A stretch of 64,000 nt of DNA from a virus (taxonomy: Duplodnaviria; Heunggongvirae; Uroviricota; Caudoviricetes), in IMG/VR virus record IMGVR_UViG_3300031857_000009; one strand, given 5' to 3'. Below, one piece after another: positions 22,812 through 61,626 of the stretch (positions are counted from its first letter, which is position 1; every line of letters starts with the position of its first letter). Both the position numbers and the translations under genes were made by a program. The notes beneath the pieces were generated by a model, which worked only from the letters and a program-made list of their open reading frames with translations, ran no database searches and had not been told where the DNA came from.

Positions 22812-22848
22812 GGTTATAATATAAATACTTTAGTTGAGATAATCAATT

Positions 22849-25770
22849 TTAATTACATGTTCCAGTGCTTGTAAAAGTACCGTCACCATCATTCGTAACT
22901 TGAGGTGTTGGTGTTAAATAACCACAGTATGTCTCAGTTGTACCATTCCCAACAGTAATAAATTGAAGGGTACCGGTACAGTCAGTATAACTAAATGTGG
23001 TATGACCTCCTGTTCCTGTCGTTCCTCCATCGAATTCCCATAGTATGTCACATGGAGTAGCCGAACTGGTTGGGGTGAGTGTTGGTGTTGGGGTATTTGT
23101 TGGTGTTACTGTATTGGTAGAAGTCACGGTCGGTGTTGGTGTTACAGTTTCAGTTGGTGTAACTGTATTAGTAGGTGTTACAGTATTCGTTGGGGTTACG
23201 GTCGGTGTTGGTGTTACAGTTTCAGTTGGTGTAACTGTATTAGTAGGTGTTATTGTTGGTGTTGATGTGGGCGAACCACCGGGTGATGTTGTAATTGTTG
23301 GAGTTACTGTATTAGTAGGTGTTACAGTATTCGTTGGGGTTACGGTCGGTGTTGGTGTTAAAGTATTGGTGGGTGTGGGTGTTACAAGTGGTATGATTGA
23401 ATCGGAGCAAATACCCACCCTAGAACCTGAGGCACCACCATTACCTGATATGGTCATCGAGATAAATGGTGTTGAATTTGTTATTATGAATTTTCCACCA
23501 CCATTGACAAAAAGTGGTGCGGTTGAGCCACCAATAATTGTGTTACCTGTTATTGTTACATAACAACTTAACGGTGAAGATATTGTGGGGGTACCTGTAT
23601 TTGTTGTAAATGTGAAATCTTCATCACTAGTACCACCCATACCGGTTATAAAAACAACTAAATCATTTACTGGTGAACTAAAATTGTATCTATATGAGAA
23701 AGGTCCTGAATTTCCTAAAAAGTTATGATAGTCGGTCATTACAATAGTGTCACCAACACAGGATGACGTGTATCCAGATGTATTTTCGGTAACACTACCA
23801 CTATATGTTGATGTTATAGAAACACCGTTCACTGTCGAGGGGACATAAACGCTATCGTTACAAGTATACCCTGTTGATGGTGTACTACTAACAGTTGGTG
23901 TTGGGGTAAGTGTTGGTGTATTCGTAGGAGTCGCACTCTGAGTCGGTGTTACTGTTGGGGTGGGTGATGATATCGGTGTCGACGAACTATCACAACAATC
24001 ATCCAAATTAACTCTAAAAACTTGTTCACAACAACCTTCACAATCAATTCTAACATATATCTCCATTAATGTTGGGTCTATACCTGTAATATCACAAATA
24101 TCTCCTGTGGACATACTTGTACATGAAGTTATACCTGTTATGTTAGTTGAAGTTAATCCGGTATAGACCGTACAATTTGTATAATTAGAACCGGAATTAA
24201 ATGAAATCTTAACGCCTTTTGGGGTGACCAAATCGTTTACACAACCTGAAGGTGTAACAGTAGGTGTAGGGGTTTTTGTTGGGGTGTTGGTGGGTGTTGG
24301 GGTTGGCGAACCACCAGGTGTTGATGTAACTGATGGTGTAACGCTAGGTGTTAGAGTCGGTGTTGATGTTACTGTAAGTGTAACTGTCGGTGTTAAAGAC
24401 GGAGTTGTTGAAGGTGTTTCACTTGGTGTATTAGAGGGTGTTGCCGATGGTGAAGTAGTTGGTGTGGGCGAACCTCCTGGTGATGAAGTAACTGTAGGTG
24501 TAACTGTATTTGTAGGGGTTGATGTATTGGTTGGAGTTACTGATGGTGAGGTAGTTGGTGTGGGTGTAGGTGAATCGCCTGGTGATGAAGTAACTGTAGG
24601 TGTAACTGTATTTGTGGGAGTTGATGTATTGGTTGGTGTAGGTGAACCGCCAGGTGAAGTTGTGACTGTAGGTGTAACTGTATTTGTAGGAGTTACTGTT
24701 GGTGTGACAGATACAGTTGAAACCGGCGAACTTGTTGGTGTTACTGTTGGTGTTACTGTTGGTGTGACAGATACAGTTGAAGCTGGTGAACTTGTTGGTT
24801 CAGGAGTGACTGTAGGTGTGACTGTCGGAGTACTAGTTAATGTAGGTGTTGGGACCGGTAGTGAGTCACAATTTTGGTAGTCCTCACAACCACCATTAGG
24901 ATTCACAACTATATTAGTTGGGTCACTGAATGTAATTGTTTGATTGTCAAAACATACACATTGATAAACCGTAGCAAAAGGTGCGATGGTTCCGGAAGTT
25001 TGAAGCAAACCATAACAATCAGTATATGAATATGTAATTGTATTTCCATCTTCACTTATGATTTGTTTACACACACAATCCGTACATATTGATGGTGTTG
25101 GTGTTGGGGTGGGGGATAGTGTTGGTGTTACAGTGTTAGTTGGTGTGGGTGTAACTGTTTTAGTAAGTGTTGGAGTTGGGGTTGGGGTTTCTGTGGGTGT
25201 TTCTGAAGGTGTTGGGGTTGGGGTTTCTGTGGGTGTTTCTGTTGGAGTTGGGGTTTCTGTGGGTGTTTCTGTTGGAGTTGGTGTCGGGGTTGGTGAAGGA
25301 CATGATGGACACTCACCAGCTGTACAACTTGGTTGTGAAACCCACGTCCCAGTGTCGTCAACTGTTGCGGTTGAAGGGCCCGACGCAACCGCAATATAAC
25401 AATCCGTATTGTCAGTGTATACACTACCTACTATATAATTTAATCCACTTTGTACTTCATAAATAGTGCCTCCTTGTTCACAACATTTTTCAAAAAAAGT
25501 GGTTTCTTGACATTGTGAACCACTATCATTTGCAGTACTATTCGATGCGGTTAATGGAGAATCGTTTTTAAAATAATATAAACTAGGTAATCCATTTTGT
25601 ATGTCGGTACAAATAGTATAACTACCATTTGAAAAACTTGTTGTTGTAAGTACACCATTACAGTTGTAATAAGCAACATACACCTTACCATTATTAACAG
25701 GGTTAGTGTTACCGGTGGCATTACCGGTATCCAATGAACTTATTGTGACGTTATATAATTGACAAGCCAT
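22849..25770 (-). CDS. Thr/Pro-linker modular protein with Cys-rich domains (putative virion fibre component)
   Basis: 973 aa; several TP tracts separating Cys-rich modules; no signal peptide. Confidence 0.8.
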   Translation of the reverse strand: MACQLYNVTISSLDTGNATGNTNPVNNGKVYVAYYNCNGVLTTTSFSNGSYTICTDIQNGLPSLYYFKNDSPLTASNSTANDSGSQCQETTFFEKCCEQGGTIYEVQSGLNYIVGSVYTDNTDCYIAVASGPSTATVDDTGTWVSQPSCTAGECPSCPSPTPTPTPTETPTETPTPTETPTETPTPTPSETPTETPTPTPTLTKTVTPTPTNTVTPTLSPTPTPTPSICTDCVCKQIISEDGNTITYSYTDCYGLLQTSGTIAPFATVYQCVCFDNQTITFSDPTNIVVNPNGGCEDYQNCDSLPVPTPTLTSTPTVTPTVTPEPTSSPASTVSVTPTVTPTVTPTSSPVSTVSVTPTVTPTNTVTPTVTTSPGGSPTPTNTSTPTNTVTPTVTSSPGDSPTPTPTTSPSVTPTNTSTPTNTVTPTVTSSPGGSPTPTTSPSATPSNTPSETPSTTPSLTPTVTLTVTSTPTLTPSVTPSVTSTPGGSPTPTPTNTPTKTPTPTVTPSGCVNDLVTPKGVKISFNSGSNYTNCTVYTGLTSTNITGITSCTSMSTGDICDITGIDPTLMEIYVRIDCEGCCEQVFRVNLDDCCDSSSTPISSPTPTVTPTQSATPTNTPTLTPTPTVSSTPSTGYTCNDSVYVPSTVNGVSITSTYSGSVTENTSGYTSSCVGDTIVMTDYHNFLGNSGPFSYRYNFSSPVNDLVVFITGMGGTSDEDFTFTTNTGTPTISSPLSCYVTITGNTIIGGSTAPLFVNGGGKFIITNSTPFISMTISGNGGASGSRVGICSDSIIPLVTPTPTNTLTPTPTVTPTNTVTPTNTVTPTITTSPGGSPTSTPTITPTNTVTPTETVTPTPTVTPTNTVTPTNTVTPTETVTPTPTVTSTNTVTPTNTPTPTLTPTSSATPCDILWEFDGGTTGTGGHTTFSYTDCTGTLQFITVGNGTTETYCGYLTPTPQVTNDGDGTFTSTGTCN

Positions 25771-25773
25771 TTA

Positions 25774-26124
25774 TTACGTTATTTGAACAACATTAACATT
25801 AAATGCACATGGGTAGTAACAATCACTACATCTTAAATCAACTAATGCTAATTGATAACCACCTTGCAATTTTGGTACCGATGATGGTACAGGGTTTATG
25901 TGTCCGTCACAGTGTTCCACAAATACAAAAATTTGTGGTATGTTATCCAATAAACTTATATTAAACGTATATCCCGTTGATATTGGAATTAAAACTTCAA
26001 CCCCATTGATATAATTTGCATCATCAATATTATGTGTTAACCCTGTGTAGATATAGTACCCGTTACAAGGTGTTTGTCCTGAAAAATTTGATATTGTTAC
26101 TGAGTATGTTACTAATGACGGCAT
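25774..26124 (-). CDS. Small beta-rich protein sharing a YTGLT module with the 973-aa protein
   Basis: IYTGLT...QIFVFVEHCDG versus VYTGLT...EIYVRIDCEG. Confidence 0.7.
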   Translation of the reverse strand: MPSLVTYSVTISNFSGQTPCNGYYIYTGLTHNIDDANYINGVEVLIPISTGYTFNISLLDNIPQIFVFVEHCDGHINPVPSSVPKLQGGYQLALVDLRCSDCYYPCAFNVNVVQIT

Positions 26125-26149
26125 TATTTCATAAATATAAATTCAATGT

Positions 26150-26998
26150 TTAATTACAATAATCGGGATTTAAATCACAATCTATAAATGCAATACCACA
26201 ATAGTTAGGGTCTGTTATGGTTCCACTTAAACCGGTTTGTGCAACTAAGTATTCACCAGCACTTGGATTGAGTGTAATATTTCCACTATCCTGTGATGAA
26301 CCAATGAATATTTGCCATTGTGGTGATGTGTATACCGCAATTACCACCCCTGAACTATTAACCTTATAAAAAGTAATTGGGATATTTGAAGTGGCGGTTG
26401 TTACACTACCTAAATTATCTTTTAGTGTCCAAGTAACTTCATATTGTATATTTTCATCTATCGTTTCAATACTGTACCATAAACAATATGATGAAGGGGT
26501 GTTTTGTGTTGGAGTAGGAGTTGGAGTCTTGGTAACTGTTGGGGTTGGTGATAAACCAGGAGTTTTTGTTGGAGTAGGGGTTGGTGTAATTGAAGCGTTC
26601 GGTGTCTTAGATGGTGTAGCGGTAACTGTTGGTGTTTTTGTAACTGTAGGTGTTGGGGTTGGGGTTCTTGTAACTGTAGGTGTTGGAGTTGGACTTATTG
26701 GTGGGTCACACTGTACCTCAACACTAAAACATAGTGTATCATAACAAGGAAACGCTTTACTATCGTGAGTGTAAATATTTTTAATTATATAACGACCTGT
26801 AGTGTCGTCTGTCATTTTAACCCAATATTGAGTATTAAAACTTAAGTTTGTAATTGTAACAGCTGTAAGAGTTAAACCTGTTGCGTAAAGTGTAAATGTT
26901 GAATTGTTCGTTTCAGGATACGGGCTATCACCGGACTTGTATCTAATTGAGTACGTACCATCATTGATTATATTGTATAAACGAACATTTAATCCCAT
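26150..26998 (-). CDS. Two beta-sandwich-like domains (first FN3-like) joined by a TP linker
   Basis: [16 protein letters not shown] resembles the FN3 L.P.T.Y.V motif; central TPTPT tract. Confidence 0.7.
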
Positions 26999-27061
26999 TT
27001 TTTAATTATTGATTTCTATATTTGATAAATATAAAAAATCCTATTTTATAGTAAAGTTATT

Positions 27062-29626
27062 TTAACATCCATCACCAATTGTATACTGAGTAGTTACCGA
27101 ACCAGAAACTACTTCATAAATTACACTTCCAATTTGAAAAAACCCATCAAATGTTGTTGTTAAGTTATTATTCGTGTAGATGGTAACACCTGAATCATAA
27201 ATATTGACCACATTTGGTAATGTGTATAATGTTACACTATACGAACCTGAACACAACACAACCCCACTACAGTAATTTGTACATCCAACCATATTCCATT
27301 CTTGATATGTCGGACTAGGTGTTGGTGTAACTGATGGAGTTTTAGTTGGGGTTGGGGTTTTAGTTAAAGTAGGGGTTGGGGTTGGGGAAACCGCTACCAA
27401 GGATGAACCACAAATTTCGTATAGAGCATTATCATTTATACCATATATTGTATTTGTCGGTACATACAAAGGTTTAGAAATACCGTCACCAATAATTTCA
27501 CTAAATATACCTGTTGTCGGGTCTAGAACACCTAAGAATCCATCTGACAATGTTGAATATCTGCTAATATATAATTTACCGTTATCAGGATTATATATCA
27601 TAGACCTTGTTGAGCCAAAAATCCAAGTTGCTCCCGATATTGAATTTAAAGTAAGTGTGGTGTTTGTTGCAACATCTATTTTGTATACCGTAGACGCACT
27701 AACTAAATAAATAATATTGTTCGTCACATCCAAAGCAATTAAACTTGCTGAGGTGATTGGTAGTGATGTACCATCTAACGAAATAGTATTACCAGAACAA
27801 GAATATATTCTACCACTCTGAGCGAAATATAATTTATTATTATTAGGATTGTAAACAGTCGCTTCAGGGTTTGATAAAGTTATACCTGTAATTTGGTTTG
27901 TAAAAGTATCTGTTGAACCATCTATGACACTAATTTGTGAAACTGAAAAATTTCCACCTGTTTGACTAAATGCATAAATTTTATTTAAAACAGAATTATA
28001 TTCAATTTTTCCTAAACCTGATGTTATTCCCGAAATTGATATTGACGATGTTGTGTTTGTGTTTAAATTTCTTATTAACATTTTAACAGGAAATGATGAT
28101 TCCCAACTGTATAATTTGTTGTTAGTTGAGTTATATCCTAATAATAAACTACTTCCTGACCATGTAAATTCATTTGTTAAACTTGTTGAATTTGGGACAA
28201 AAGATTGTACAACACTTGATGCGTTTAGAACGTATGCTTTGTTATTTGATGATGAATAAACCATACCTTGTCTACCAACGGCAGAATATGAATTCGTTGC
28301 GGCAAGAGTATTTCTAACTGAATCACTACAACCACCTGATGGTGTTGGGGTCAGGGTCGGGGTTACGGTATTAGTAGGTGTTACACTTGGGGTCGCAACT
28401 GGATTACCGGATGGACTTGGTGTTGGGGTTTTTGTTGGGGTCGGGGTTGGAGATACAATAGGTACAGGTAATGTAAAATTCACAGAATTAGTACACGTAC
28501 CAGTACTTTGAACTGTAAATGTTGTTATTGAATAACACACAAGTGCGGTATACCCAGATAATAATTGAGATGTTGTCACACCAGTTGCAATTAATACTAT
28601 AGTTCCTCCTGTTGTTGTTCCCGAAATATTATAAGGTCCGGCTTGCGTTAAAAAATAAATTGGGTGTAATGAGAATGTATATTGAGTACATCCTGTAGGT
28701 ACTAGTGAAGGTGATGGGGTTACTGTGGGTGTTACACTAACAGTTACCGAAGGTGTTAATGAAGGGGTATTTGTGGGTGTATTTGTTGGTGTAACCGAAG
28801 GTGTCGAACCTAACGTACTTGACGGTGTATTTGTGGGTGTATTTGTTGGTGTAACCGAAGGTGTCGGAGTTAGACTTGGAGTTTTTGTTGGAGTTACAGT
28901 ATTTGTTGGGGTTGGGGTTTCGGAAGGAGTTTCGGAAGGAGTTTGTGTTAATGTGGGTGTTGGAGTTGGGGTCACACTCGGACAAACTACAGTACAGAAA
29001 CCATTGAAAGATATCCCTGCATATGGGTAACTCGGGTCGTAACAAACATATGTTGGTGAAAATGAACCACTATGATATACACCACAACAGTCCGTATAAT
29101 ACCAATTTGGTGAATCGGTTATACCTGAGTAACATAAAGTTGGTGTGGGTGTTGGAGTAGGGGTAGGAGTTGGACTTGGTGGTGTTAAACAGTCAATACA
29201 ATTTGTAAAAAGAGCATTTTCAGAAATTAATTGTGCAACAGTATAATTGTAAGTGGTGCTACCAGTGCCTTGTTCATAAACTCCTGTATAGTTGTAACAT
29301 GTACCATCATAAGAAATTGTTGCACCTGTACTTTGGAAATACTGATTAACTTCTGAATTTTTTAAACCAAAGTAAACAAATGCCCCTGGTATTTGGCAAT
29401 GTTCAAATTGCCACCCATTAAAATCGTCGTTACATTGTTCACAGGTTGTATAACCACTAAAAATAACCGTACCTGACGGTCCACCTCCGACATTTCCTGT
29501 TGAAGACCAACATTGGTAATCAGCAAAAATCGTGTCACCCGATAATACTAAACTGTCATCGACGACAAAATCATAGTATGACGCTGGGTCTAAACAATTT
29601 TGAAATGTTATTATTTGTGCTGGCAT
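27062..29626 (-). CDS. Modular protein: Cys-rich modules, TP linkers and a 7-blade YncE/YVTN-like beta-propeller
   Basis: Seven repeats of the (Y/D)NxxNNKLY type (e.g. LGYNSTNNKLY, TVYNPNNNKLY, MIYNPDNGKLY); VIDGSTDT. Confidence 0.75.
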   Translation of the reverse strand: MPAQIITFQNCLDPASYYDFVVDDSLVLSGDTIFADYQCWSSTGNVGGGPSGTVIFSGYTTCEQCNDDFNGWQFEHCQIPGAFVYFGLKNSEVNQYFQSTGATISYDGTCYNYTGVYEQGTGSTTYNYTVAQLISENALFTNCIDCLTPPSPTPTPTPTPTPTLCYSGITDSPNWYYTDCCGVYHSGSFSPTYVCYDPSYPYAGISFNGFCTVVCPSVTPTPTPTLTQTPSETPSETPTPTNTVTPTKTPSLTPTPSVTPTNTPTNTPSSTLGSTPSVTPTNTPTNTPSLTPSVTVSVTPTVTPSPSLVPTGCTQYTFSLHPIYFLTQAGPYNISGTTTGGTIVLIATGVTTSQLLSGYTALVCYSITTFTVQSTGTCTNSVNFTLPVPIVSPTPTPTKTPTPSPSGNPVATPSVTPTNTVTPTLTPTPSGGCSDSVRNTLAATNSYSAVGRQGMVYSSSNNKAYVLNASSVVQSFVPNSTSLTNEFTWSGSSLLLGYNSTNNKLYSWESSFPVKMLIRNLNTNTTSSISISGITSGLGKIEYNSVLNKIYAFSQTGGNFSVSQISVIDGSTDTFTNQITGITLSNPEATVYNPNNNKLYFAQSGRIYSCSGNTISLDGTSLPITSASLIALDVTNNIIYLVSASTVYKIDVATNTTLTLNSISGATWIFGSTRSMIYNPDNGKLYISRYSTLSDGFLGVLDPTTGIFSEIIGDGISKPLYVPTNTIYGINDNALYEICGSSLVAVSPTPTPTLTKTPTPTKTPSVTPTPSPTYQEWNMVGCTNYCSGVVLCSGSYSVTLYTLPNVVNIYDSGVTIYTNNNLTTTFDGFFQIGSVIYEVVSGSVTTQYTIGDGC

Positions 29627-29670
29627 TTATTACTATTCTTTCTATAAATACTTAAATCATTATTTTATCA

Positions 29671-32600
29671 TTAACATGCTTCTCCACAAAATGTGTTACA
29701 ATAATCACCACAACCAGTACCGTATGTATATTGCGAAGTATATATTGGTGGTACGAAGTTTCCTCTAAACAATATAAACACATTTGTCACTCTCATAAGA
29801 CAAACGCTATAATTACCAGGGGCGTTATAACCTTGTGTTGTGAATGTACCATCACAACATTGGTATGCAAAGTATACTTGATTATCATCTGAGGCTGTTA
29901 AATCATTAATATCAACAAAAAAGTCTGTACACAAACAATCACCACAAGCACCATCATACGTTATCTCCCCACCATAAGGACCTAATACACTTGGAATACT
30001 ACATGAACATATCTCAATTGTACCACTTGCTGGGTACACATTTGGGTCAAGTATTTCTGTGGGTGTTCCTCCACCGCAACAAGTGGTATAGTTAACTATA
30101 TTACCAGGTCCTAATCCTGTAATAATATATGACTCACAAACACATGGTGGAGTTGGGGTTGGGGTCGGAGTTGGAGTTGGGGTTGGGGTTGATGACGGAT
30201 TTGAAACCGGAGATGGTGTTGGAGTGTTTGTTGGAGTGTTTGTTGGAGTTACAGTCTTGGTTGGTGTATTTGTAGGAGTATTGGTTGGTGTTAAAGTTGG
30301 AGTAACTGTCCTTGTTGGAGTATTTGTAGGGGTAAAGGTTGGAGTTACAGTCTTGGTTGGAGTATTTGTAGGGGTAAAGGTTGGAGTTACAGTCTTGGTT
30401 GGTGTATTTGTAGGGGTAAAGGTTGGAGTTACAGTCTTGGTTGGTGTATTTGTAGGAGTATTGGTTGGTGTTAAAGTTGGAGTAACTGTCCTTGTTGGTG
30501 TATTTGTCGGTGTTTTTGTTGGGGTTAAAGTTGGTGTAACTGTTGGTGTAACTGTTGGGGTTGGTGAAGGACAAGGGTGATAAGTTTCACATTCAGTACA
30601 TGTATTGTATGTACCATACGCAGTGATTGCGGAACCAGGTACTCCTGGTCCGACTGAGTTTGTAACAAAATAACAACAACCATTAATTGATATATAACGG
30701 TTTACTAAAAGATTTGGGTTAAATCCATTTTGACAACCAAATTGAATTGTATATTGTCCTGTTGTACCACAACATCCACATCTTTGTAAATCGAAAATCC
30801 AAGTGGCGCATGGGTTAGCTCCAATACATGTTTCACATGTATCAACACTAAATGATGATGGTGGATAATACCCGTCAACCCCACTAAAGTTTGGTGGTGA
30901 GTAGGTTTGACTATAACCTTCAACAAAATAACAACATCCATTTATAACAATAGTTTGACCTTGTGAAATACCGCTTTGAACATAGGTCAAATTAGTTGTT
31001 ATACTTAAATAAGAAATAGTATTACCTAAAATACCACCATCACAACATGGTAATAAATAAACATAACCAACCTGTAAGGATGGTGATGGTGTTACTGTGC
31101 TTGTTGGTGTTAATGTAGGAGTTAAAGTTGGTGTAACTGTTTTTGTTGGTGTATTGGTAGGGGTTACGGATGGTGTTCTCGTAGGAGTAACACTATTGGT
31201 TGGGGTGTTAGTCGGGGTTAAAGTTGGTGTAACTGTTCTTGTTGGTGTATTGGTAGGGGTTACCGTAGGGCTAACAGTGGCGGCTGGAGTTCTTGTTGGA
31301 GTAACAGTATTTGTTGGGGTATTGGTTGGTGTGAGAGTTGGTGTAACTGTTCTTGTTGGTGTATTGGTAGGGGTTACCGTATTCGTAGGTGTAACAGTTC
31401 TGGTTGGTGTTGGTGTCGGGGTTGGTGATGGACAAAAATTTAGAGTTTCTCCTAAACATTGTGCACAACTTGTCTGAACAGTAGTGTAAATCGTACCTCC
31501 AGGTCCTACCTGTTGCACATACGTTGCACATAACTGAATGTCTTGTAAATAAAATACCGTACCTAACAATGTACCTAATGGTACTTGACCATAATAAACA
31601 TTGGTGTCACCAGGACAACATGATTCAAATCTAGCAGCAACATACTGAGGACTAGCCGTTGGGGTTACTGTTTTGGTTGGTGTCAATGTTGGTGTAACAG
31701 TATTTGTTGGAGTGTTAGTTGGTGTTACGGTTGGACTAACTGTGGCAGCCGGTGTTCTTGTTGGTGTAACAGTATTTGTTGGGGTATTTGTTGGAGTTAC
31801 CGTAGGACTAACAGTGGCTGCTGGAGTTCTTGTTGGGGTATTGGTTGGGGTAACAGTATTTGTGGGGGTTACTGTGTTCGTTGGGGTATTGGTAGGTGTA
31901 TTTGTTGGTGTTAATGTTGGACTAACAGTAGCCGCTGGTGTTCTTGTTGGTGTAACAGTATTTGTTGGGGTATTTGTTGGAGTTACCGTATTTGTTGGAG
32001 TATTAGTTGGGGTGTTAGTTGGTGTTACAGTGTTGGTTGGTGTATTAGTTGGAGTTAAAGTTGGTGTAACTGTTCTTGTTGGTGTATTGGTAGGTGTAAC
32101 TGTATTCGTAGGGGTGACTGTATTAGTTGGAGTGTTGGTTGGAGTATTAGTTGGAGTTAAGGTTGGACTAACAGTGGCAGCTGGTGTTCTTGTCGGGGTT
32201 ACGGTATTAGTAGGGGTATTGGTTGGAGTTACCGTATTTGTTGGAGTATTAGTTGGGGTGTTGGTTGGAGTAACAGTGTTGGTTGGGGTGTTAGTAGGGG
32301 TGTTGGTCGGTGTAACTGTATTTGTTGGAGTAACAGTATTAGTAGGTGTGTTTGTTGGTGTGTTAGTCGGTGTTAATGTTGGACTAACAGTAGCCGCTGG
32401 TGTTCTCGTAGGAGTTACAGTATTGGTAGGAGTATTGGTAGGAGTAACGGTGTTTGTTGGGGTGTTTGTAGGAGTATTGGTTGGTGTTACAGTATTGGTT
32501 GGAGTATTGGTTGGTGTAAAAGTTGGTGTAACAGTTTTTGTTGGTGTATTAGTAGGAGTATTGGTCGGTGTGACAGTGTTGGTTGGTGTTACTGTATTTG

Positions 32601-35600: not shown

Positions 35601-38600
35601 TATTAGTAGGTGTCTGAGTTGGTGTAACTGTCTTGGTTGGGGTATTAGTTGGCGTTACAGTATTGGTTGGGGTTACCGTATTTGTAGGAGTTACGGTATT
35701 GGTTGGAGTAACAGTATTAGTCGGCGTTACTGTGTTAGTTGGGGTGTTAGTGGGGGTAACAGTATTAGTAGGAGTAACGGAATTCGTGGGAGTGTTTGTA
35801 GGAGTGTTTGTTGGTGTTAATGTAGGTGTTACGGTTTTTGTTGGTGTATTGGTTGGGGTTACTGTATTTGTAGGAGTATTTGTAGGAGTTAAGGTAGGTG
35901 TAACAGTATTGGTTGGGGTATTGGTAGGTGTGTTGGTCGGGGTGACTGTGTTAGTTGGTGTAACTGTATTAGTTGGTGTATTCGTAGGGGTTTGAGTTGG
36001 TGTAACAGTATTGGTTGGGGTATTTGTTGGAGTTAAAGTTGGTGTGACAGTTTTTGTTGGTGTATTGGTAGGAGTTACGGTATTTGTAGGAGTATTAGTC
36101 GGTGTCTGAGTTGGTGTTACGGTGTTTGTTGGAGTATTGGTTGGAGTTAATGTAGGTGTTACAGTCTTGGTTGGTGTATTAGTTGGTGTTACAGTATTAG
36201 TAGGTGTAACAGTATTAGTAGGTGTAACAGTGTTTGTAGGTGTAACGGTATTGGTGGGAGTCACCGTATTAGTTGGTGTGTTAGTTGGGGTTACGGTGTT
36301 GGTTGGAGTAACGGTATTTGTTGGGGTGTTTGTAGGAGTGTTTGTTGGTGTTAATGTAGGTGTTACGGTTTTTGTTGGTGTATTGGTTGGTGTAACAGTA
36401 TTTGTTGGTGTGTTGGTGGGTGTGTTGGTGGGTGTTACAGTATTAGTTGGGGTATTAGTAGGACTCAATGTTGGGGTAACAGTATTCGTTGGTGTTACAG
36501 TATTGGTTGGAGTGTTTGTTGGGGTATTTGTTGGGGTTACGGTATTAGTAGGGGTATTGGTTGGAGTTAATGTAGGAGTAACAGTCTTGGTTGGTGTATT
36601 AGTTGGCGTAACAGTGTTTGTTGGGGTGTTAGTTGGGGTATTTGTAGGGGTTACCGTATTGGTCGGAGTGTTGGTTGGTGTTAATGTAGGAGTAACAGTC
36701 TTGGTTGGAGTGTTTGTTGGGGTAACAGTATTGGTTGGAGTCACTGTATTAGTTGGTGTGTTGGTCGGTGTATTTGTTGGGGTTAAAGTTGGTGTGACAG
36801 TTTTTGTTGGTGTATTGGTTGGGGTTACTGTGTTAGTAGGAGTGTTTGTAGGTGTATTAGTAGGGGTATTAGTATTAGTCGGGGTATTGGTCGGTGTAAC
36901 TGTATTCGTTGGAGTAACGGTAGGAGTTAATGTAGGAGTAACAGTCTTGGTTGGTGTATTAGTAGGTGTGTTAGTAGGGGTTACCGTATTGGTTGGGGTG
37001 TTAGTCGGGGTAACTGTGTTAGTTGGTGTGTTAGTTGGTGTGTTGGTCGGAGTTACCGTATTTGTTGGAGTATTTGTAGGGGTTAAGGTAGGCGTAACAG
37101 TTCTTGTTGGAGTATTGGTCGGTGTAACTGTATTCGTTGGAGTTACAGTGTTAGTGGGGGTTACGGTATTGGTCGGCGTTACAGTGTTAGTCGGTGTTAC
37201 CGTATTAGTTGGAGTATTTGTTGGCGTAACAGTGTTTGTTGGAGTTACAGTGTTTGTGGGGGTATTGGTTGGAGTATTGGTGGGAGTCTGAGTTGGGGTG
37301 ACTGTCTTAGTTGGGGTATTGGTCGGGGTAACTGTGTTGGTTGGAGTAACGGTATTTGTTGGGGTATTGGTCGGGGTATTGGTTGGAGTTAAAGTTGGCG
37401 TAACAGTGTTTGTTGGTGTATTGGTAGGTGTTACAGTATTAGTTGGGGTATTGGTTGGAGTTAAAGTTGGTGTAACAGTTTTTGTTGGTGTATTAGTTGG
37501 CGTTACAGTATTAGTTGGTGTGTTAGTTGGTGTGTTTGTTGGGGTTACCGTATTGGTCGGAGTTACCGTAGGACTCAATGTAGGAGTTACAGTATTAGTT
37601 GGTGTGTTGGTTGGTGTGACTGTATTCGTTGGAGTGTTAGTAGGTGTCTGAGTTGGGGTAACAGTATTTGTTGGAGTATTGGTAGGAGTATTGGTAGGGG
37701 TTACAGTATTGGTAGGAGTATTGGTAGGGGTTACAGTATTGGTAGGAGTATTCGTTGGGGTTAGAGTTGGTGTAACAGTTTTGGTAGGAGTATTAGTAGG
37801 GGTTACAGTATTTGTAGGAGTTACCGTAGGACTCAATGTGGGAGTCACCGTATTAGTTGGTGTATTGGTTGGGGTTACGGTGTTGGTTGGAGTGTTTGTA
37901 GGTGTATTAGTTGGAGTAACAGTATTTGTAGGTGTATTAGTCGGGGTATTGGTTGGTGTTACGGTGTTGGTTGGGGTTAAAGTTGGTGTGACAGTTTTTG
38001 TTGGTGTATTGGTTGGCGTAACAGTGTTTGTCGGAGTATTAGTTGGGGTGTTGGTTGGTGTATTAGTTGGAGTTACAGTGTTGGTTGGAGTGTTAGTTGG
38101 TGTTACGGTATTGGTTGGGGTTACTGTGTTTGTAGGAGTATTGGTCGGTGTATTCGTTGGGGTTAGAGTTGGTGTAACAGTTTTGGTAGGAGTATTAGTA
38201 GGAGTTATAGTATTCGTTGGTGTGTTGGTCGGTGTAACAGTATTAGTTGGGGTGTTGGTTGGGGTGTTGGTTGGAGTAACAGTATTAGTTGGAGTATTAG
38301 TTGGGGTGTTGGTTGGAGTAACAGTGTTTGTTGGGGTTACCGTAGGGCTCAATGTGGGAGTTACAGTTTTAGTAGGGGTGTTTGTTGGAGTTACGGTGTT
38401 GGTTGGGGTATTGGTTGGTGTGTTAGTTGGTGTAACTGTATTAGTGGGAGTCACTGTAGGGCTCAATGTTGGAGTTACAGTGTTGGTTGGGGTGTTAGTT
38501 GGTGTATTGGTTGGTGTAACTGTATTCGTTGGAGTGTTTGTAGGAGTGTTGGTTGGGGTTACAGTATTAGTTGGTGTGTTGGTTGGAGTTAATGTAGGTG

Positions 38601-41600
38601 TAACGGTTCTTGTGGGGGTGTTGGTAGGGGTTACGGTATTAGTTGGAGTGTTTGTTGGGGTATTTGTTGGGGTTACGGTATTAGTTGGAGTGTTTGTTGG
38701 GGTATTTGTTGGGGTTACGGTATTAGTAGGGGTATTGGTTGGGGTATTTGTTGGGGTTACGGTATTAGTAGGGGTATTGGTTGGAGTTAATGTAGGTGTA
38801 ACGGTTCTTGTGGGGGTGCTGGTAGGGGTTACGGTGTTAGTTGGAGTGTTGGTAGGTGTGTTAGTTGGCGTAACGGTGTTAGTTGGAGTCACAGTCGGAC
38901 TCAATGTAGGTGTTACTGTATTTGTTGGGGTGTTGGTAGGGGTATTTGTAGGTGTTACGGTGTTGGTAGGTGTAACTGTTGGACTCAATGTAGGAGTCAC
39001 AGTATTTGTTGGTGTATTTGTAGGTGTGTTAGTTGGGGTAACGGTATTAGTTGGAGTGTTGGTTGGTGTATTTGTTGGTGTTACTGTGTTAGTAGGGGTA
39101 TTTGTGGGAGTATTTGTAGGTGTTACGGTGTTGGTAGGTGTAACTGTTGGACTCAATGTGGGAGTCACAGTTTTAGTAGGAGTATTTGTAGGTGTTACGG
39201 TGTTGGTAGGTGTGTTTGTTGGGGTATTGGTTGGAGTTACCGTATTCGTCGGAGTATTAGTAGGGGTGTTAGTTGGAGTTACAGTGTTTGTTGGTGTGTT
39301 TGTAGGGGTATTGGTAGGTGTTACTGTGTTAGTAGGAGTATTTGTAGGAGTATTGGTTGGTGTTACGGTATTTGTAGGAGTTACAGTTGGTGTTAATGTA
39401 GGAGTCACCGTGTTTGTTGGGGTATTGGTGGGAGTATTTGTAGGGGTTACCGTATTTGTCGGTGTATTGGTTGGTGTTAAAGTAGGTGTAACCGTTCTTG
39501 TTGGAGTGTTAGTTGGTGTAACCGTATTTGTAGGAGTATTAGTAGGGGTGTTGGTAGGGGTTACAGTATTCGTAGGGGTATTGGTTGGTGTATTCGTGGG
39601 TGTGACAGTATTAGTTGGTGTTACGGTTGGACTCAGTGTAGGGGTTACTGTATTGGTTGGAGTGTTAGTTGGGGTATTTGTAGGTGTAACTGTATTTGTT
39701 GGGGTGTTTGTAGGTGTATTAGTTGGTGTAACTGTATTAGTTGGTGTATTCGTAGGGGTTTGAGTTGGTGTAACAGTATTTGTAGGAGTCACAGTCGGAC
39801 TCAATGTGGGAGTCACGGTCTTAGTCGGTGTGTTAGTAGGGGTAACTGTGTTCGTAGGAGTTACCGTAGGACTCAATGTAGGGGTGACAGTGTTGGTTGG
39901 AGTATTGGTTGGTGTGTTGGTTGGTGTTACGGTGTTTGTAGGAGTTACTGTATTAGTAGGAGTGTTCGTAGGGGTATTGGTAGGGGTTACTGTGTTAGTT
40001 GGAGTGTTAGTAGGTGTATTGGTAGGAGTAACTGTATTGGTTGGTGTATTTGTGGGTGTAACAGTGTTAGTTGGTGTGTTAGTTGGTGTGTTGGTAGGAG
40101 TTACGGTGTTAGTTGGAGTATTTGTAGGTGTCTGAGTTGGTGTAACTGTATTCGTAGGGGTTACAGTCGGACTCAGTGTAGGTGTTACTGTGTTAGTCGG
40201 GGTAACTGTAGGTGTATTTGTTGGAGTTACAGTGTTGGTTGGGGTGTTGGTTGGAGTTACGGTGTTCGTTGGAGTATTGGTTGGTGTATTAGTTGGGGTT
40301 ACTGTATTAGTTGGAGTATTGGTTGGGGTATTGGTTGGAGTTACAGTCTTGGTTGGTGTGTTGGTTGGTGTTACGGTGTTTGTTGGAGTATTGGTTGGAG
40401 TGTTTGTGGGGGTGTTGGTTGGTGTTACGGTGTTTGTTGGGGTGACTGTATTGGTTGGAGTGTTTGTTGGGGTGTTGGTGGGAGTATTTGTAGGGGTTAC
40501 CGTATTTGTCGGTGTATTGGTTGGTGTTAAAGTAGGTGTAACCGTTCTTGTTGGAGTTACAGTCGGACTCAATGTTGGAGTTACTGTATTGGTTGGTGTT
40601 AGTGTCGGGCTTAATGTTGGTGTAACAGTACTAGTTGGGGTATTGGTTGGGGTGTTGGTTGGAGTTACCGTATTGGTTGGTGTATTCGTCGGTGTATTTG
40701 TAGGTGTAACAGTATTCGTAGGTGTTACAGTTGGAGTATTGGTTGGGGTTACTGTGTTAGTTGGAGTATTGGTGGGGGTATTGGTTGGAGTAACAGTATT
40801 TGTTGGTGTCACAGTCGGACTCAATGTTGGTGTAACAGTTTTTGTTGGGGTATTTGTCGGTGTCTGAGTTGGTGTTACGGTATTGGTTGGCGTATTGGTA
40901 GGAGTATTGGTTGGCGTATTTGTTGGAGTTACGGTATTAGTTGGTGTGACTGTATTGGTTGGGGTGTTAGTCGGCGTGTTCGTAGGGGTGTTGGTTGGTG
41001 TTACCGTATTTGTTGGTGTATTAGTAGGTGTGTTAGTAGGTGTTACTGTATTTGTAGGCGTGTTCGTGGGAGTCTGAGTTGGTGTTACAGTGTTAGTAGG
41101 AGTGTTAGTTGGCGTGTTAGTGGGTGTAACAGTATTAGTAGGAGTCACCGTTGGACTCAATGTAGGTGTAACAGTATTGGTTGGTGTGTTGGTCGGAGTG
41201 TTGGTAGGAGTTACAGTATTAGTAGGAGTCACCGTTGGACTCAATGTAGGTGTAACTGTATTTGTTGGGGTATTTGTTGGGGTATTGGTAGGAGTTACTG
41301 TATTAGTCGGAGTGTTGGTCGGGGTGTTGGTTGGAGTAACAGTGTTGGTGGGAGTATTGGTTGGAGTGTTAGTTGGTGTATTTGTTGGGGTTACGGTGTT
41401 GGTTGGAGATACCGTATTTGTAGGAGTATTGGTTGGAGTGTTAGTTGGGGTTAGTGTTGGGGTTACGGTGTTTGTTGGGGTATTGGTAGGTGTATTGGTT
41501 GGTGTAACGGTATTTGTAGGAGTAACAGTGTTGGTTGGAGTATTGGTAGGACTTAATGTTGGCGTATTAGTTGGGGTTACGGTGCTGGTTGGAGTCACTG

Positions 41601-44600
41601 TTGGACTCAATGTAGGTGTAACTGTATTTGTTGGTGTGTTGGTAGGAGTGTTTGTAGGAGTCACAGTATTAGTAGGAGTCACAGTTGGACTTAATGTGGG
41701 AGTTACTGTATTAGTTGGAGTGTTGGTAGGTGTGTTAGTTGGGGTTACTGTATTTGTCGGGGTATTGGTTGGGGTATTTGTTGGTGTAACGGTGTTGGTC
41801 GGAGTGTTTGTGGGAGTATTTGTAGGAGTTACTGTGTTCGTAGGAGTTACTGTAGGACTCAATGTTGGTGTTACTGTATTTGTTGGGGTGTTAGTAGGAG
41901 TGTTTGTTGGAGTCACCGTGTTTGTTGGGGTATTGGTGGGAGTATTTGTTGGTGTAACAGTATTTGTTGGGGTGTTAGTTGGGGTGTTGGTAGGAGTTAC
42001 CGTATTGGTTGGTGTGTTAGTTGGGGTGTTGGTAGGAGTTACCGTATTGGTTGGTGTGTTAGTAGGAGTGTTTGTTGGTGTAACAGTATTGGTTGGTGTG
42101 TTAGTAGGAGTGTTTGTTGGTGTAACAGTATTGGTAGGAGTTACAGTTGGGGTGTTGGTTGGAGTTACAGTATTAGTAGGCGTATTGGTAGGAGTATTAG
42201 TTGGAGTTACTGTATTTGTAGAAGTATTGGTAGGAGTATTGGTAGGGGTGACAGTATTGGTGGGCGTATTGGTAGGAGTATTGGTTGGGGTGACTGTATT
42301 TGTTGGAGTATTTGTTGGGGTGTTAGTTGGAGTTACTGTATTTGTAGGAGTATTGGTAGGAGTATTGGTAGGGGTGACAGTATTGGTGGGGGTGTTTGTA
42401 GGAGTATTGGTAGGGGTGACAGTATTGGTTGGAGTATTAGTTGGGGTGACTGTATTTGTTGGAGTATTTGTTGGGGTGTTGGTAGGGGTGTTGGTAGGAG
42501 TTACAGTATTGGTTGGAGTAACTGTATTGGTTGGAGTGTTTGTCGGGGTATTTGTAGGTGTCAGTGTCGGTGTTACGGTATTTGTTGGAGTATTAGTAGG
42601 AGTGTTAGTTGGTGTAACCGTATTTGTTGGTGTATTTGTGGGTGTATTGGTAGGAGTAACTGTATTGGTAGCCGTATTGGTAGGAGTGTTGGTTGGTGTA
42701 TTAGTTGGTGTGACTGTATTGGTCGGAGTTACCGTCGGTGTATTTGTTGGGGTTACGGTATTGGTAGGGGTTACTGTTGGTGTATTCGTAGGCGTGTTTG
42801 TTGGGGTTACGGTATTTGTTGGAGTATTAGTGGGGGTATTCGTAGGTGTATTGGTTGGTGTTACGGTGTTAGTTGGGGTATTTGTAGGGGTTTGAGTTGG
42901 TGTAACGGTATTGGTTGGAGTCACTGTTGGACTCAATGTTGGCGTTACCGTATTGGTAGGAGTATTAGTTGGCGTATTGGTAGGAGTAACTGTGTTGGTT
43001 GGGGTGTTGGTAGGAGTGTTAGTTGGTGTTACAGTATTAGTTGGTGTGTTAGTTGGTGTGTTTGTTGGTGTTACGGTGTTCGTAGGGGTGTTAGTAGGTG
43101 TCAGTGTTGGGGATACCGTATTGGTAGGAGTGTTAGTTGGTGTATTTGTAGGGGTTACCGTATTGGTAGGAGTATTAGTTGGTGTATTTGTAGGAGTAGC
43201 AGTATTAGTAGGGGTATTTGTTGGAGTATTGGTCGGTGTTACAGTGTTTGTTGGAGTGTTGGTTGGTGTTACAGTGTTTGTTGGGGTGTTTGTCGGAGTG
43301 TTGGTTGGGGTATTCGTTGGTGTTACAGTATTTGTAGGGGTTACGGTGTTGGTTGGAGTATTGGTGGGGCTTAATGTTGGGGTATTTGTAGGGGTTACGG
43401 TGTTGGTTGGGGTCGCTGTTGGAGTCAATGTAGGTGTAACTGTATTGGTTGGGGTATTGGTAGGAGTATTGGTTGGGGTAACAGTATTGGTAGGAGTAAC
43501 TGTTGGACTCAATGTAGGAGTAACTGTATTGGTAGGAGTGTTTGTTGGTGTATTGGTTGGTGTTACAGTATTAGTTGGAGTATTTGTTGGAGTTAAAGTT
43601 GGTGTAACAGTTTTTGTTGGTGTATTAGTTGGGGTGTTAGTAGGAGTTACTGTATTGGTTGGTGTGTTTGTGGGAGTATTGGTTAATGTAACGGATGGTG
43701 TTACAGTGTTGGTTGGTGTTACCGTTGGAGTATTGGTGGGTGTTGGGGTGCTCGTTGGAGTTGGTGAGGGTAACATTGTATAATCAATGTCACAAGAAGG
43801 TGCTGGTGTTGGTGAAACCGTCACAGTTACACTTGGTGTATTTGTTGGAGTTACAGTATTGGTTGGAGTTACAGTATTTGTCGGGGTGTTTGTGGGGGTA
43901 ACTGTATTGGTTGGAGTCACTGTTGGACTCAATGTTGGTGTTACAGTGTTAGTAGGAGTGTTGGTCGGCGTGTTAGTTGGAGTATTGGTTGGTGTTACGG
44001 TGTTAGTTGGTGTTACCGTAGGACTCAATGTAGGAGTCACAGTATTGGTAGGTGTATTGGTTGGAGTATTGGTTGGTGTTACGGTGTTAGTTGGTGTTAC
44101 CGTAGGACTCAATGTAGGAGTCACAGTATTCGTTGGTGTGTTTGTAGGTGTATTAGTCGGAGTTACGGTGTTGGTTGGAGTTACGGTATTTGTGGGAGTG
44201 TTTGTAGGAGTGTTGGTAGGAGTGTTTGTTGGAGTTACGGTGTTGGTTGGGGTATTGGTTGGGGTATTGGTTGGTGTAACGGTATTTGTAGGAGTATTTG
44301 TAGGTGTCTGAGTTGGAGTTACTGTATTCGTCGGTGTGTTTGTTGGGGTGTTGGTAGGAGTTACGGTATTGGTAGGACTTAATGTTGGAGTGTTAGTTGG
44401 AGTATTTGTTGGAGTTACTGTGTTGGTTGGAGTATTCGTAGGTGTAACCGTATTTGTTGGTGTATTAGTTGGGGTGTTTGTAGGTGTATTAGTTGGTGTC
44501 ACAGTTTCTGTTGGAGTCACTGTAACAGTATTGGTTGGTGTGACTGTATTGGTAGGGGTTACGGTGTTGGTTGGTGTAAGTGTTGGTGTTTCTGTGGGAG

Positions 44601-46089
44601 TATTTGTTGGTGTGTTGGTGGGGGTATTTGTTGGTGTTTCGGTTGGTGTATTTGTAGGTGTATTAGTTGGAGCTACCGTATTTGTTGGAGTTACAGTTGG
44701 AGTGTTAGTTGGGGTAACCGTTGGTGTAACAGTATTGGTAGGAGTATTGGTTGGGGTTTGAGTTGGTGTAACGGTTGCAGTATTTGTTGGTGTTAGGGTA
44801 GGTGTTTCAGTTTGTGTTACAGTGGGTGTATTGGTTGGAGTTACAGTATTGGTTGGAGTTACAGTTGAGGTATTAGTCGGAGTGTTAGTTGGTGTTATGG
44901 TGTTGGTTGGGGTATTGGTAGGTGTTTCGGTAGGGGTAACGGTTGGACTCAGTGTTGGTGTTACTGTGTTAGTCGGAGTATTAGTTGGGGTGTTGGTTGG
45001 TGTTTCGGTAGGGGTAACGGTTAGGGTTACGGTGTTGGTTGGAGTATTGGTTGGTGTTTCGGTTGGTGTTTCGGTTGGTGTATTAGTTGGGGTAACAGTA
45101 TTGGTTGGAGTTACAGTTGGGGTAACAGTTGGGGTAACAGTTGGAGTTACGGTGTTGGTTGGGGTATTGGTTGGTGTTTCGGTTGGTGTTTCGGTTGGTG
45201 TATTAGTTGGGGTAACAGTATTTGTTGGGGTGTTAGTGGGTGTTTCAGTCGGTGTATTAGTTGGGGTATTGGTTGGTGTTTCGGTAGGGGTTACTGTATG
45301 AGTTGGTGTATTGGTAGGTGTTTCGGTAGGGGTTACCGTATTTGTTGGAGTTACAGTTGGAGTTTCGGTAGGGGTAACTGTATTTGTTGGGGTGTTGGTA
45401 GGTGTTTCAGTTGGTGTATTGGTTGGGGTTACCGTATTTGTTGGGGTTACAGTTGGAGTTTCGGTCGGAGTAACAGTTGGTGTCTCGGTTGGTGTAACTG
45501 TATTCGTAGGAGTTACAGTAGGTGTGTTGGCTGGTGATTCGGTTGGAGTTACTGTGTTAGTTGGGGTAACTGTAGGAGTTTCAGTTGGGGTAACCGTTGG
45601 GGTATTTGTTGGGGTATTGGTTGGAGTTACTGTGTTAGTTGGAGTAACTGTAGGAGTTTCAGTTGGGGTAACTGTAGGCTCGTTTGTTGGAGTATTAGTC
45701 GGAGTTACGGTATTCGTAGGAGTATTTGTTGGAGTGATAGTATTGGTTGGGGTAACAGTAGGTGTTTTTGTAACCGTAGGTGTAACAGTAGGGGTTTTGG
45801 TAACTGTTGGGGTTGGGGTATTTGAAGTAAAGGTTGTTGGTGTTGGTGTTAATGATGGTGTAAGTGTTGGTGAAGGTGTAGGTGAAGGTGTAGGGCAAGG
45901 AATCTCAGCCACACAAGTTTTATCAAGTGACGGAAAATAAACTGAGTAAGTACCTAAGTAGTAGTTTGTGTCGTAATAATATGGCATCACGACAGTACCT
46001 AAATTCAAGGTACCGCCAGTACAAGGATAAAATGTGATAACACCAATTTCACCATCAAAATTACCTGTGTTTATTTTTATTAATGCCAT
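29671..46089 (-). CDS. Giant 5472-aa Thr/Pro/Asn/Val repeat protein with a small N-terminal domain and Cys-rich C-terminal modules
   Basis: Single uninterrupted 16.4-kb ORF; amino-acid repeat conserved while synonymous positions vary; upstream promoter-like motif; embedded in the tail gene cluster. Confidence 0.85.
31670..45900 (-). repeat. ~14.2-kb coding low-complexity repeat (TPTN 12-nt and TVTPTN 18-nt units in 30- and 42-nt combinations)
   Basis: Read directly. Exact tandem copies include the 30-mer at 37681-37740 and the 42-mer at 38629-38712; one unique island at about 43768-43800 (SCDIDYTML). Confidence 0.95.
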
Positions 46090-51341: not shown

Positions 51342-51365
51342 GTTTTTTTATAATAAATATGAAAA

Positions 51366-59251: not shown

Positions 59252-59303
59252 TATTCTATAAATAGAAAATTATGGATTTCCAGAAAAATAAATAAAAATT
59301 AAA

Positions 59304-61136: not shown

Positions 61137-61137
61137 A

Positions 61138-61590
61138 TTATATGTTAATAATTATAAAATCGGACGAAACAAAAGGTTCGTTATTTATGTCATAGTCAAT
61201 TCGAACTTTTGCGGTATATGGTTTGGTTGAATAATCAGAAACTCTAAACAATCTTGAGTCCTCATCTTCTTGTGGGCTCATAGATTCTTCAGGGTCTTGG
61301 TCAGCGGGTGTAACTCTAATTGATTTTATTTCTAAATTAGGTATGTATAATTTCACCGCAGTTCTTATTTCATCTTCTATCTGACCCCATGTTACAGCGT
61401 CATTTGGTTCAAAAATAAATTCATATAATCTAGTCCCAAAATCAGGTAAATAATATCTTGAACCCTTTCTTGTTAATAACAAGTGAATCAAGTTTGCACG
61501 AATCTCTCTCTCAGGGGTTTCGGTCATAACCAAAAAATCACCCTTAGGACTAATTCTGAATGGAAAATCTATACCATATGTAATCGCCAT
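61138..61590 (-). CDS. Baseplate gp25/GPW-like sheath-initiator protein
   Basis: GIDFPF, IRANLIHLLLTRKGSRYYLPDFGTRLYEFIFEP, AVKLYIP. Confidence 0.92.
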   Translation of the reverse strand: MAITYGIDFPFRISPKGDFLVMTETPEREIRANLIHLLLTRKGSRYYLPDFGTRLYEFIFEPNDAVTWGQIEDEIRTAVKLYIPNLEIKSIRVTPADQDPEESMSPQEDEDSRLFRVSDYSTKPYTAKVRIDYDINNEPFVSSDFIIINI

Positions 61591-61626
61591 ACTAATAAAT
61601 ATAACTAAAGAACAAATACTAATAAA

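Follow-up and report, generated by a model that had tools for sequence, protein, structure and literature searches.

A cassette of modular proteins on very long threonine-rich linkers in an uncultured jumbo phage: candidate virion-anchored adhesins

What might a phage gain from five adjacent genes whose products are largely small modules strung on threonine- and proline-rich linkers, one of them several thousand residues long? This cassette, 23 kb of co-oriented minus-strand open reading frames (ORFs), encodes proteins of 973, 116, 282, 854 and 5472 amino acids (aa), here called g973, g116, g282, g854 and the giant. It lies in a stretch of 64,000 nucleotides (nt), the window, to which our positions refer, within the 155.7-kb IMG/VR virus record IMGVR_UViG_3300031857_000009. 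We consider it somewhat probable that the cassette encodes hypervariable, virion-anchored tethered adhesins or fibres at the distal end of a baseplate gene block.

The five ORFs were found exactly where an earlier reading of this DNA (the original prediction) had placed them, with the sizes it had given and all on the minus strand. On segmentation, four of the proteins prove to consist of globular modules (40-300 aa each) with linkers rich in Thr, Pro and Ser between them, the linkers ranging from 15 to 4755 residues; g116 is a single linker-free module, in agreement with the claim that Thr-Pro (TP) linkers occur in all but the 116-aa protein. Across the whole record, linkers of this type are confined to four genes (g973, g282, g854 and the giant). 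Cysteine accounts for 4.8% of module residues versus 1.16% in the remainder of the record, and the termini of the cassette proteins are Cys-rich modules. The predicted lack of signal peptides was also upheld: an N-terminal hydrophobic or transmembrane (TM)-like segment is present in none of the five, so the proteins should remain in the cytoplasm, which is the site of virion assembly. Pfam searches of the five proteins and of the terminal parts of the giant (E ≤ 0.1) assigned no family, apart from one chance-level match to YodE.

The most extreme element of the cassette is the linker of the giant (residues 61-4815, 4755 in all), in which every second residue is Thr with few exceptions (2300 of about 2377 such positions, 97%). 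The other positions are filled by Pro (1003), Asn (745) and Val (419), with a few Leu, Lys, Glu and Arg. The linker is zoned: its first 475 residues hold all of the Glu, and toward the C-terminal end Ala, Arg and Lys become more frequent. Its DNA is degenerate, repeats matching each other at 63-70% of positions, and the longest exact repeat is 116 nt. An 18-aa unit is present 103 times in 102 different DNA versions, whose mean nucleotide identity of 0.797 is close to the 0.795 expected under independent synonymous codon choice. Codon usage resembles that of neighbouring genes, and GC skew is extreme. This scrambling of codons indicates a real coding sequence under selection, and by its sequence the linker reads as an old coding repeat kept by purifying selection at the peptide level, not as an assembly artefact.

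An extended chain resembling polyproline II measures about 0.31 nm per residue, a value that gives the 4755-residue linker a contour length of ~1.5 µm. Structure prediction of the giant covered its C-terminal 465 residues as a monomer; in this AlphaFold2 (AF2) model the predicted local distance difference test (pLDDT) score is below 30 on the linker and 70-90 on modules. An ice-binding T-X-T array was set aside, since a chain with Pro in every fourth position, and with so low a pLDDT, is unlikely to form a regular beta-solenoid. The part of the linker at window 31650-33700 (giant residues about 4130-4815) is a zone with a longer repeat unit of its own. This zone may also hold the 116-nt repeat, which is the longest exact repeat of the record, and if it does, the C-terminal end of the linker grew most recently. 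Between different linkers, exact DNA matches extend over only 17-28 nt.

Whether the proteins draw on a common kit of modules was judged by hhalign profile-profile comparison of small orthologue alignments. The two halves of the g854 N-terminal region match each other at 95%, and the paired type-A Cys modules of the giant match the g854 N-module at 92% and 72%. The N-module of g973 matches the second half of the giant C-terminal domain (87%), and the YTGLT module of g973 matches the 116-aa family (77%). Hidden Markov models (HMMs) made from each half of the type-A pair retrieved orthologues only and none of the other module copies, and pairwise BLAST between modules gave weak matches only. Regular expressions for type A and type B each found four copies, versus 0.2 and 0.02 in shuffled sequences, and we give these counts little weight because the patterns were derived from the same sequences. 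The profile-profile matches, at 72-95%, establish that the shared kit of Cys-rich and YTGLT modules is real, as first proposed, though HMM iteration and BLAST miss the sharing.

Two named folds had been assigned to this kit, a beta-propeller and an FN3-like domain. The propeller of g854 shows seven blade motifs spaced about 41-45 aa apart, and its profile matches the YncE structure in the PDB (3VGZ, E 5.2e-7). This profile included distant YncE-named matches, the distant matches of the region being proteins named YncE or carrying PF10282; as a single sequence the propeller matches nothing in Pfam or the PDB. Together, the blades and the profile match bear out the assignment.

The FN3-like domain stands less firmly. 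Its fold was modelled on P0057, a natural fusion of the FN3-like N-module with the 116-aa module that is 69% and 56% identical to the window modules, and the mean pLDDT of this model is 57.7, a low confidence. Foldseek gave 60 matches at E ≤ 1e-3; the ones listed are, without exception, tandem pairs of FN3 or immunoglobulin (Ig)-type domains. VIA-align comparisons of its halves with FN3 gave Z scores of 7.0-7.6 for the g282-type N-module and 7.5-7.8 for the g116-type module. Among the matches are CtXyl5A, a cellulosomal enzyme, through its FN3-like module, and an Fn3-like protein of C. thermocellum (both at Z 7.7-7.8); one chain of the tail tip complex of phage T1 matches as well. The g282 N-module (residues 1-95), g116 and the YTGLT module of g973 are thus, on a low-confidence model, putative FN3-like sandwiches. 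The domain is supported at the level of the fold, while none of g282, g116 and g973 matches fn3 in Pfam.

For the Cys-rich modules no clear known fold emerged, which does not make their fold new. AF2 pLDDT is about 65-89 over the type-A pair of the giant. With the giant C-terminal model, Foldseek returned PDB matches at E ≥ 0.4 and, in BFVD, none that went below 1e-3. The C-terminal domain scored highest in VIA against a small lectin-like or jelly-roll-like sandwich, at a Z of 4.2 that is not decisive. The profile of the type-A pair matched only 7 proteins among 1.84 billion representative proteins, and in sequence terms the Cys-rich modules appear to be restricted to this lineage.

Comparison with relatives reveals that the cassette is rearranged within a stable backbone. 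Three syntenic viral contigs, along with further metagenomic proteins, were reached via the propeller. The FN3-like module that heads g282 here heads the propeller protein in two relatives (L002 and L003), and in others its cargo is a pair of propellers or a VWA domain with a propeller, the C-terminal modules varying as well. In L003 the N-terminal modules of g854 are carried by a 1230-aa protein ending in a 638-residue linker. The modules of g973 are reordered on proteins of 1180 aa (L003) and 1303 aa (L002), and the arrangement of the cassette modules differs in L004 too. Homologues contain the 116-aa module alone, fused straight to the FN3-like module, or with linkers and further modules after it. 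Among metagenomic relatives of g282 and g854 (P0009 and P0008), one variant places a VWA domain before its propeller and a second has two different tandem propellers, so the set of cargo domains is wider than in the window.

The 60-aa N-module of the giant is present on 15 further IMG/VR viral contigs, always with the linker directly after it. Complete giant ORFs in relatives encode 2737 and 2940 aa, and two more encode at least 3392 aa. A word-index search of proteins of 3009-9576 aa for this N-module found none. A survey of module shuffling and linker length across related genomes had been proposed as a check, and both kinds of variation are found in the related contigs. In ten of the 15 contigs the sequence stops inside the linker, after between a few hundred and about 1100 codons of it. 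Assemblies of this phage lineage thus break systematically at the repeat, and such contig ends mark the locus. In one relative, G002 (L003:1948-2066 with L010:1-12090), the giant frame is broken once inside the TP repeat, giving a 4688-aa ORF and an overlapping 630-aa ORF in another frame that bears the C-terminal Cys modules (about 5280 aa if joined). This split could reflect a sequencing error, a genuine truncation or programmed frameshifting.

Conservation along the giant is steeply graded. When the window proteins are compared with those of G001 and G002, backbone proteins are 79-94% identical and the giant N-module is 90% identical, versus 46-53% for the type-A modules (46-49% for the single copy) and 32-38% for the C-terminal domain. 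A conserved N-terminus with a variable C-terminus is the usual polarity of receptor-binding proteins. Judged by this gradient, the N-terminal 60-aa module is a candidate virion anchor and the C-terminal Cys-rich domain a candidate distal binding tip.

The position of the cassette gives a further indication of function, although not the one first described, in which the genes were said to sit between baseplate-type genes. Adjacent gp25-like and gp6-like genes, an arrangement typical of the T4-type baseplate wedge module, begin a co-directional block that continues with six conserved ORFs (1374, 586, 277, 388, 305 and 1414 aa), the five cassette genes and a 716-aa ORF. The two wedge genes therefore lie upstream only, six ORFs away, and beyond the 716-aa ORF the downstream genes are those for RuvC, primase, exonuclease and SbcCD. 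In Flavobacterium phage immuto, the slot after gp25 and gp6 holds annotated tail fibre and tail spike genes. The 1414-aa protein, encoded directly upstream of the giant gene, is a candidate docking partner for it.

From these patterns we infer virion attachment and a binding function. The earlier claim that these are virion appendages retains the block position with its counterpart in immuto, the conserved-N, variable-C gradient, and the putative FN3-like folds, which are of a kind known in adhesion proteins and include the one match to the T1 tail tip complex; it loses the flanking by baseplate genes on both sides. A putative FN3-like anchor joined to variable cargo and the lack of an export signal would likewise suit virion-anchored adhesins. 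Each protein would be a single-chain string of FN3-like sandwiches, a YncE-type propeller or Cys-rich modules on (Thr-X)n spacers. The conserved N-terminal modules would dock the proteins at the virion periphery, the spacers would keep the distal modules away from the particle, and the fast-evolving C-terminal modules would bind host-surface ligands in a first, reversible capture, with the giant acting as a 'fishing line' whose contour length is about 1.5 µm. Recombination in linker DNA would exchange modules between genes and alter linker length, and synonymous scrambling would protect the repeat from recombinational collapse.

Several observations weigh against this reading. No structural family of Pfam or PHROGs matches the cassette proteins, and the only PHROG found on the five proteins, phrog_15511, is of unknown function and matches the linker alone; the same searches yielded no fibre match, as expected from the original statement that no classical tail-fibre family describes these proteins. 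The six ORFs between the gp6-like gene and the cassette, as well as the 716-aa ORF, match no functional family, and because of this the label 'baseplate block' rests on two genes and synteny. The FN3 assignment derives from a pLDDT 57.7 model of a homologue and not from the proteins of the window themselves. No fibre-typical trimerisation element was seen in the parts examined, and the proteins look like monomeric strings rather than trimeric shafts. Finally, a flexible chain of 4755 residues is more likely a loose coil (roughly 70-170 nm across by our own estimate) than a stretched 1.5-µm filament.

A more specific form of the tether involves a 15-gene glycan operon located just outside the window. 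Its Pfam matches include a UDP-GlcNAc 2-epimerase, two FkbM methyltransferases and two GT2 matches that exceed the cut-off; a GT-D-like match to PF22882 in a 239-aa protein of the operon falls below the cut-off (21.9 versus 27 bits). All 15 proteins lack TM-like segments, suggesting that the glycan is probably built on a soluble acceptor, and among the 10 operon proteins scanned with Pfam there is no Wzx, Wzy or membrane priming transferase. The gene content is consistent with an acceptor that is possibly a soluble protein, for which the thousands of Thr residues in the linkers are obvious candidates. GT2 genes are present on all five large giant-bearing contigs and FkbM genes on three of them, which is weak evidence because there is no control set of TP-free contigs. 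The operon genes searched for were not found on G001-G003 (fragments 15-28% complete), including, on G001, the stretch where synteny predicts the operon to start. We advance only tentatively, as something short of probable, the idea that the linkers are O-glycosylated in the cytoplasm by this operon with a methylated glycan and form stiff, protease-resistant, mucin-like tethers that could reach micrometre scale, with an anchor at the baseplate and fast-evolving, Cys-rich, lectin-like tips.

Other functions can be envisaged for the same proteins. They might coat the virion and make it adhere to exopolymers, to particles or to the mucus of algae or animals, the settings of Bacteroidota hosts, as in the 'adherence to mucus' idea for the Ig-like Hoc, instead of binding a receptor that triggers infection. 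FN3-like, VWA and propeller modules are indeed general adhesion domains, the proteins are flexible single chains that lack fibre-type trimer motifs, and several paralogous strings bear different tips. However, the cassette is grouped with baseplate rather than head genes, and divergence of the distal modules among close relatives fits an arms race with hosts better than a generic substrate, so that we rate this role as rather unlikely.

It is likewise unlikely, in our judgement, that the proteins are late products outside the virion, released at lysis or kept in the cell as a Thr-rich matrix, decoy or glue that aggregates cells or blocks superinfection. Packaging of the cassette proteins is an inference only, no structural family matches them, and replication genes follow directly downstream. 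Yet no signal peptide or TM segment would serve export, the cassette is tightly linked to and co-directional with the wedge genes and syntenic with them in relatives, and the conserved-N, variable-C polarity suits an anchored protein.

Glycosylated linkers could also act purely as a protective brush, a hydrated shield of the tail or baseplate against proteases, aggregation, grazers and host defences in which the modules are mere anchors. This would leave the divergence and shuffling of the distal modules unexplained, glycosylation of the linkers is hypothetical here, and the operon genes searched for were not found at the syntenic position on G001. The 2300 Thr residues of the giant alone, an operon of 15 genes without TM-like segments 22 kb away, and GT2 genes on five of five large giant-bearing contigs are compatible with such a shield, and virion glycans of mycobacteriophages act as one according to Freeman 2023 (PMC10527164) as cited in PMC12619734. 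On balance we regard it as very unlikely.

That the 16.4-kb repeat is mis-assembled or non-coding can be dismissed as extremely improbable: the linker does trouble short-read assemblers, with 10 of 15 related contigs stopping in it and the frame interrupted once in G002, but chance origin of a 5472-codon open frame is impossible in a genome of roughly 32% GC, copies 63-70% identical with no exact repeat beyond 116 nt are easy to assemble, codon usage is like that of other genes and the N- and C-terminal modules are conserved across independent assemblies, so that at most the exact copy number of the linker could be slightly wrong.

Table 1. Coordinates of the cassette, its modules and related features (window positions unless a contig is named).
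Feature	Position	Strand	Basis or remark
g973, 973-aa modular protein	22849-25770	minus	translation, segmentation
YTGLT module in g973	23995-24237	minus	hhalign 77% to g116 family
g116, 116-aa stand-alone YTGLT module	25774-26124	minus	33 metagenomic homologues
g282, 282 aa: putative FN3-like N-module (26714-26998), linker, 110-aa C-terminal module	26150-26998	minus	segmentation
g854, 854-aa modular protein	27062-29626	minus	translation, segmentation
g854 duplicated type-A-like N-module, residues 1-146	29189-29626	minus	hhalign half 1 versus half 2, 95% (E 2.5e-8)
YncE-type 7-bladed beta-propeller, g854 residues 437-740	27407-28318	minus	profile match, blade motifs
Giant 5472-aa putative tether protein	29671-46089	minus	single ORF
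Giant N-terminal module, 60 aa	45910-46089	minus	90% identical in G001, G002
Giant (Thr-X)n linker, residues 61-4815	31645-45909	minus	dipeptide alternation
Giant single type-A Cys module, residues 4816-4881	31447-31644	minus	segmentation; hhalign 51% to g854 N-module, 60 columns
Giant type-A Cys module pair, residues 5008-5167, 15 Cys	30589-31068	minus	15 Cys invariant in alignment
Giant C-terminal Cys-rich domain, residues 5321-5472, 14 Cys	29674-30129	minus	AF2 pLDDT about 70-92
716-aa conserved protein, end of block	20661-22811	minus	85% identical in relatives
1414-aa conserved protein, directly upstream of giant gene	46180-50424	minus	79-80% identical and syntenic in G001, G002
gp25-like and gp6-like baseplate wedge genes	59304-61590	minus	PHROG 261/43 (E 4e-19), PHROG 6/219 (E 2e-22); head of block
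TATTTAT upstream windows	61591-61601, 59252-59264, 51342-51360, 29627-29651, 26999-27032, 26125-26138, 22812-22828	minus	
15-gene glycan operon	G000:C1:88837-100946 (L008)		about 22 kb from cassette, just outside window
Contigs ending in linker	L011, L012 (locus cut only), L013-L015, L017, L019-L022, L025		

The source of this DNA is probably an uncultured T4-related jumbo myovirus with a host in the Bacteroidota. The record, ~50% complete by CheckV and ~32% GC, also codes for a tail sheath, a baseplate hub, UvsX, DnaB and RNR. In GenBank, the phage records that come closest to its gp6-like protein (26-29% identity) belong to Flavobacterium phage immuto, Microcystis phage Mel-JY01 and an uncultured phage of 484 kb. 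No tRNA genes were found across the 155-kb record. Moraphages are freshwater jumbo phages of 200-307 kb whose predicted hosts are Flavobacteriia (PMC12619734). The record matches that description in its ~32% GC and an estimated full size near 300 kb, which is a resemblance only.

Among the conserved proteins of the block, searches of PDB sequences, tblastn against phages and the ESM Atlas gave no identification for those of 716, 1414 and 1374 aa, the ESM Atlas matches of the 716-aa protein being viral hypothetical clusters only. The 1374-aa protein (window 55127-59251) contains 26 Cys and one TM-like segment near residue 481, and the 1414-aa protein contains 19 Cys. Neither matches Pfam, PHROGs or PDB sequences, nor does the 1414-aa protein match GenBank phages.

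A heptamer, TATTTAT, sits 11-33 nt before the starts of gp25, the 1374-aa and 305-aa ORFs, g854, g282, g116 and the 716-aa ORF. It also precedes two large structural-block ORFs elsewhere in the record and is not present before RuvC and primase. Its enrichment is modest (20 sense versus 12 antisense occurrences in 173 upstream windows), and it may be a common late-gene signal; the T4 late promoter TATAAATA was not found upstream of the cassette genes.

Singly, PT linkers, FN3 domains, propellers and cassettes of receptor-binding proteins (RBPs) are already known. The novelty lies in a phage combining them, in a (Thr-X)n pattern kept strictly over 4755 residues and in the lineage-restricted Cys-rich modules. 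Neither the 116-aa protein nor the propeller, the giant C-terminal region or the 716-aa and 1414-aa proteins had a tblastn match in 50,697 GenBank phage records, and a literature search found no description of TP-repeat phage fibres. If the proteins are virion-borne, this lineage reaches out with single-chain, low-complexity tethers of hundreds of nm to more than 1 µm instead of rigid trimeric fibres, which would be another physical solution to finding hosts in dilute water. Shuffling of domains through linker DNA would let the phage acquire new host ranges in plug-and-play fashion. How a 14-kb repeat can be stably kept is illustrated by its strict codon scrambling, and the same repeat accounts for the frequent assembly breaks at this locus in the lineage. 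The large glycan operons of aquatic jumbo phages also gain, in this cassette, a concrete candidate for their acceptor.

The original prediction likened the system to a cellulosome-like display. Modular cellulases and cellulosomal scaffoldins, such as Cex and CenA of Cellulomonas fimi, use PT linkers that are typically 20-50 residues long. Here too, extended PT-rich spacers join small modules that are shuffled among paralogues, and the putative FN3-like module, in a low-confidence model, matches that of CtXyl5A. Unlike in those enzymes, no cohesin, dockerin, carbohydrate-binding module or catalytic domain is found with Pfam, no secretion signal is present and the linkers are 10 to 200 times longer, so that the likeness holds for the linkers and not for the domains they carry.

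Closer to home are the RBP cassettes of phages (T4 gp37/gp38, other T-even phages and Klebsiella phages), with which this cassette shares a position after the baseplate genes, a conserved N-terminus with a variable C-terminus, and horizontal exchange of distal modules. It differs in that no fibre or spike family is matched and no triple beta-helix or coiled-coil shaft is seen in the parts examined; the only shaft-like part is a low-complexity chain predicted to be unstructured, and each protein has the look of a monomer.

Glycosylated virion surfaces have precedents. The fibrils of Mimivirus are glycosylated by virus-encoded glycosyltransferases. In mycobacteriophages, as Freeman 2023 (PMC10527164) is cited in PMC12619734, virus-coded glycosyltransferases modify the C-termini of major capsid and tail tube subunits, whereas the putative targets here are repeat proteins of thousands of residues.

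The 'hairy' jumbo phages vB_PcaM_CBB, Atu_ph07 and phAPEC6 bear many additional thin fibres, and phiCbK has a long, flexible head filament; both kinds of structure serve in first contact (PMC5259590, PMC6102473, PMC7247149). Ours is likewise a large phage for which a fibre-type first contact is proposed. The fibres of the hairy phages are conventional fibre proteins, and no tblastn match to the present modules was found.

The nearest parallel to a glycosylated tether comes from bacteria, in which the stalks of the serine-rich-repeat (SRR) adhesins Fap1 and GspB and the SD-repeat stalk of ClfA (modified by SdgA and SdgB) receive O-glycans from soluble glycosyltransferases dedicated to the task, DUF1792 of the GT-D type among them (PMC5063993, PMC6973325, PMC3794999). 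Like them, the giant has a very long stalk of hydroxy-amino-acid-X dipeptides, with 97% Thr alternation, that would project a small binding region. A glycan operon, with no predicted membrane protein and one sub-threshold GT-D-like match, lies near the cassette. Unlike them, it belongs to a phage and not to a Gram-positive cell wall, uses Thr rather than Ser, and carries unrelated binding modules on a linker about twice as long or more, for which glycosylation is hypothetical. It also has no signal peptide or TM-like segment, accessory Sec and an LPXTG anchor not having been searched for. If the linkers are indeed glycosylated, these tethers would be a viral counterpart of the bacterial SRR adhesins and would provide the glycan operon with a named acceptor.

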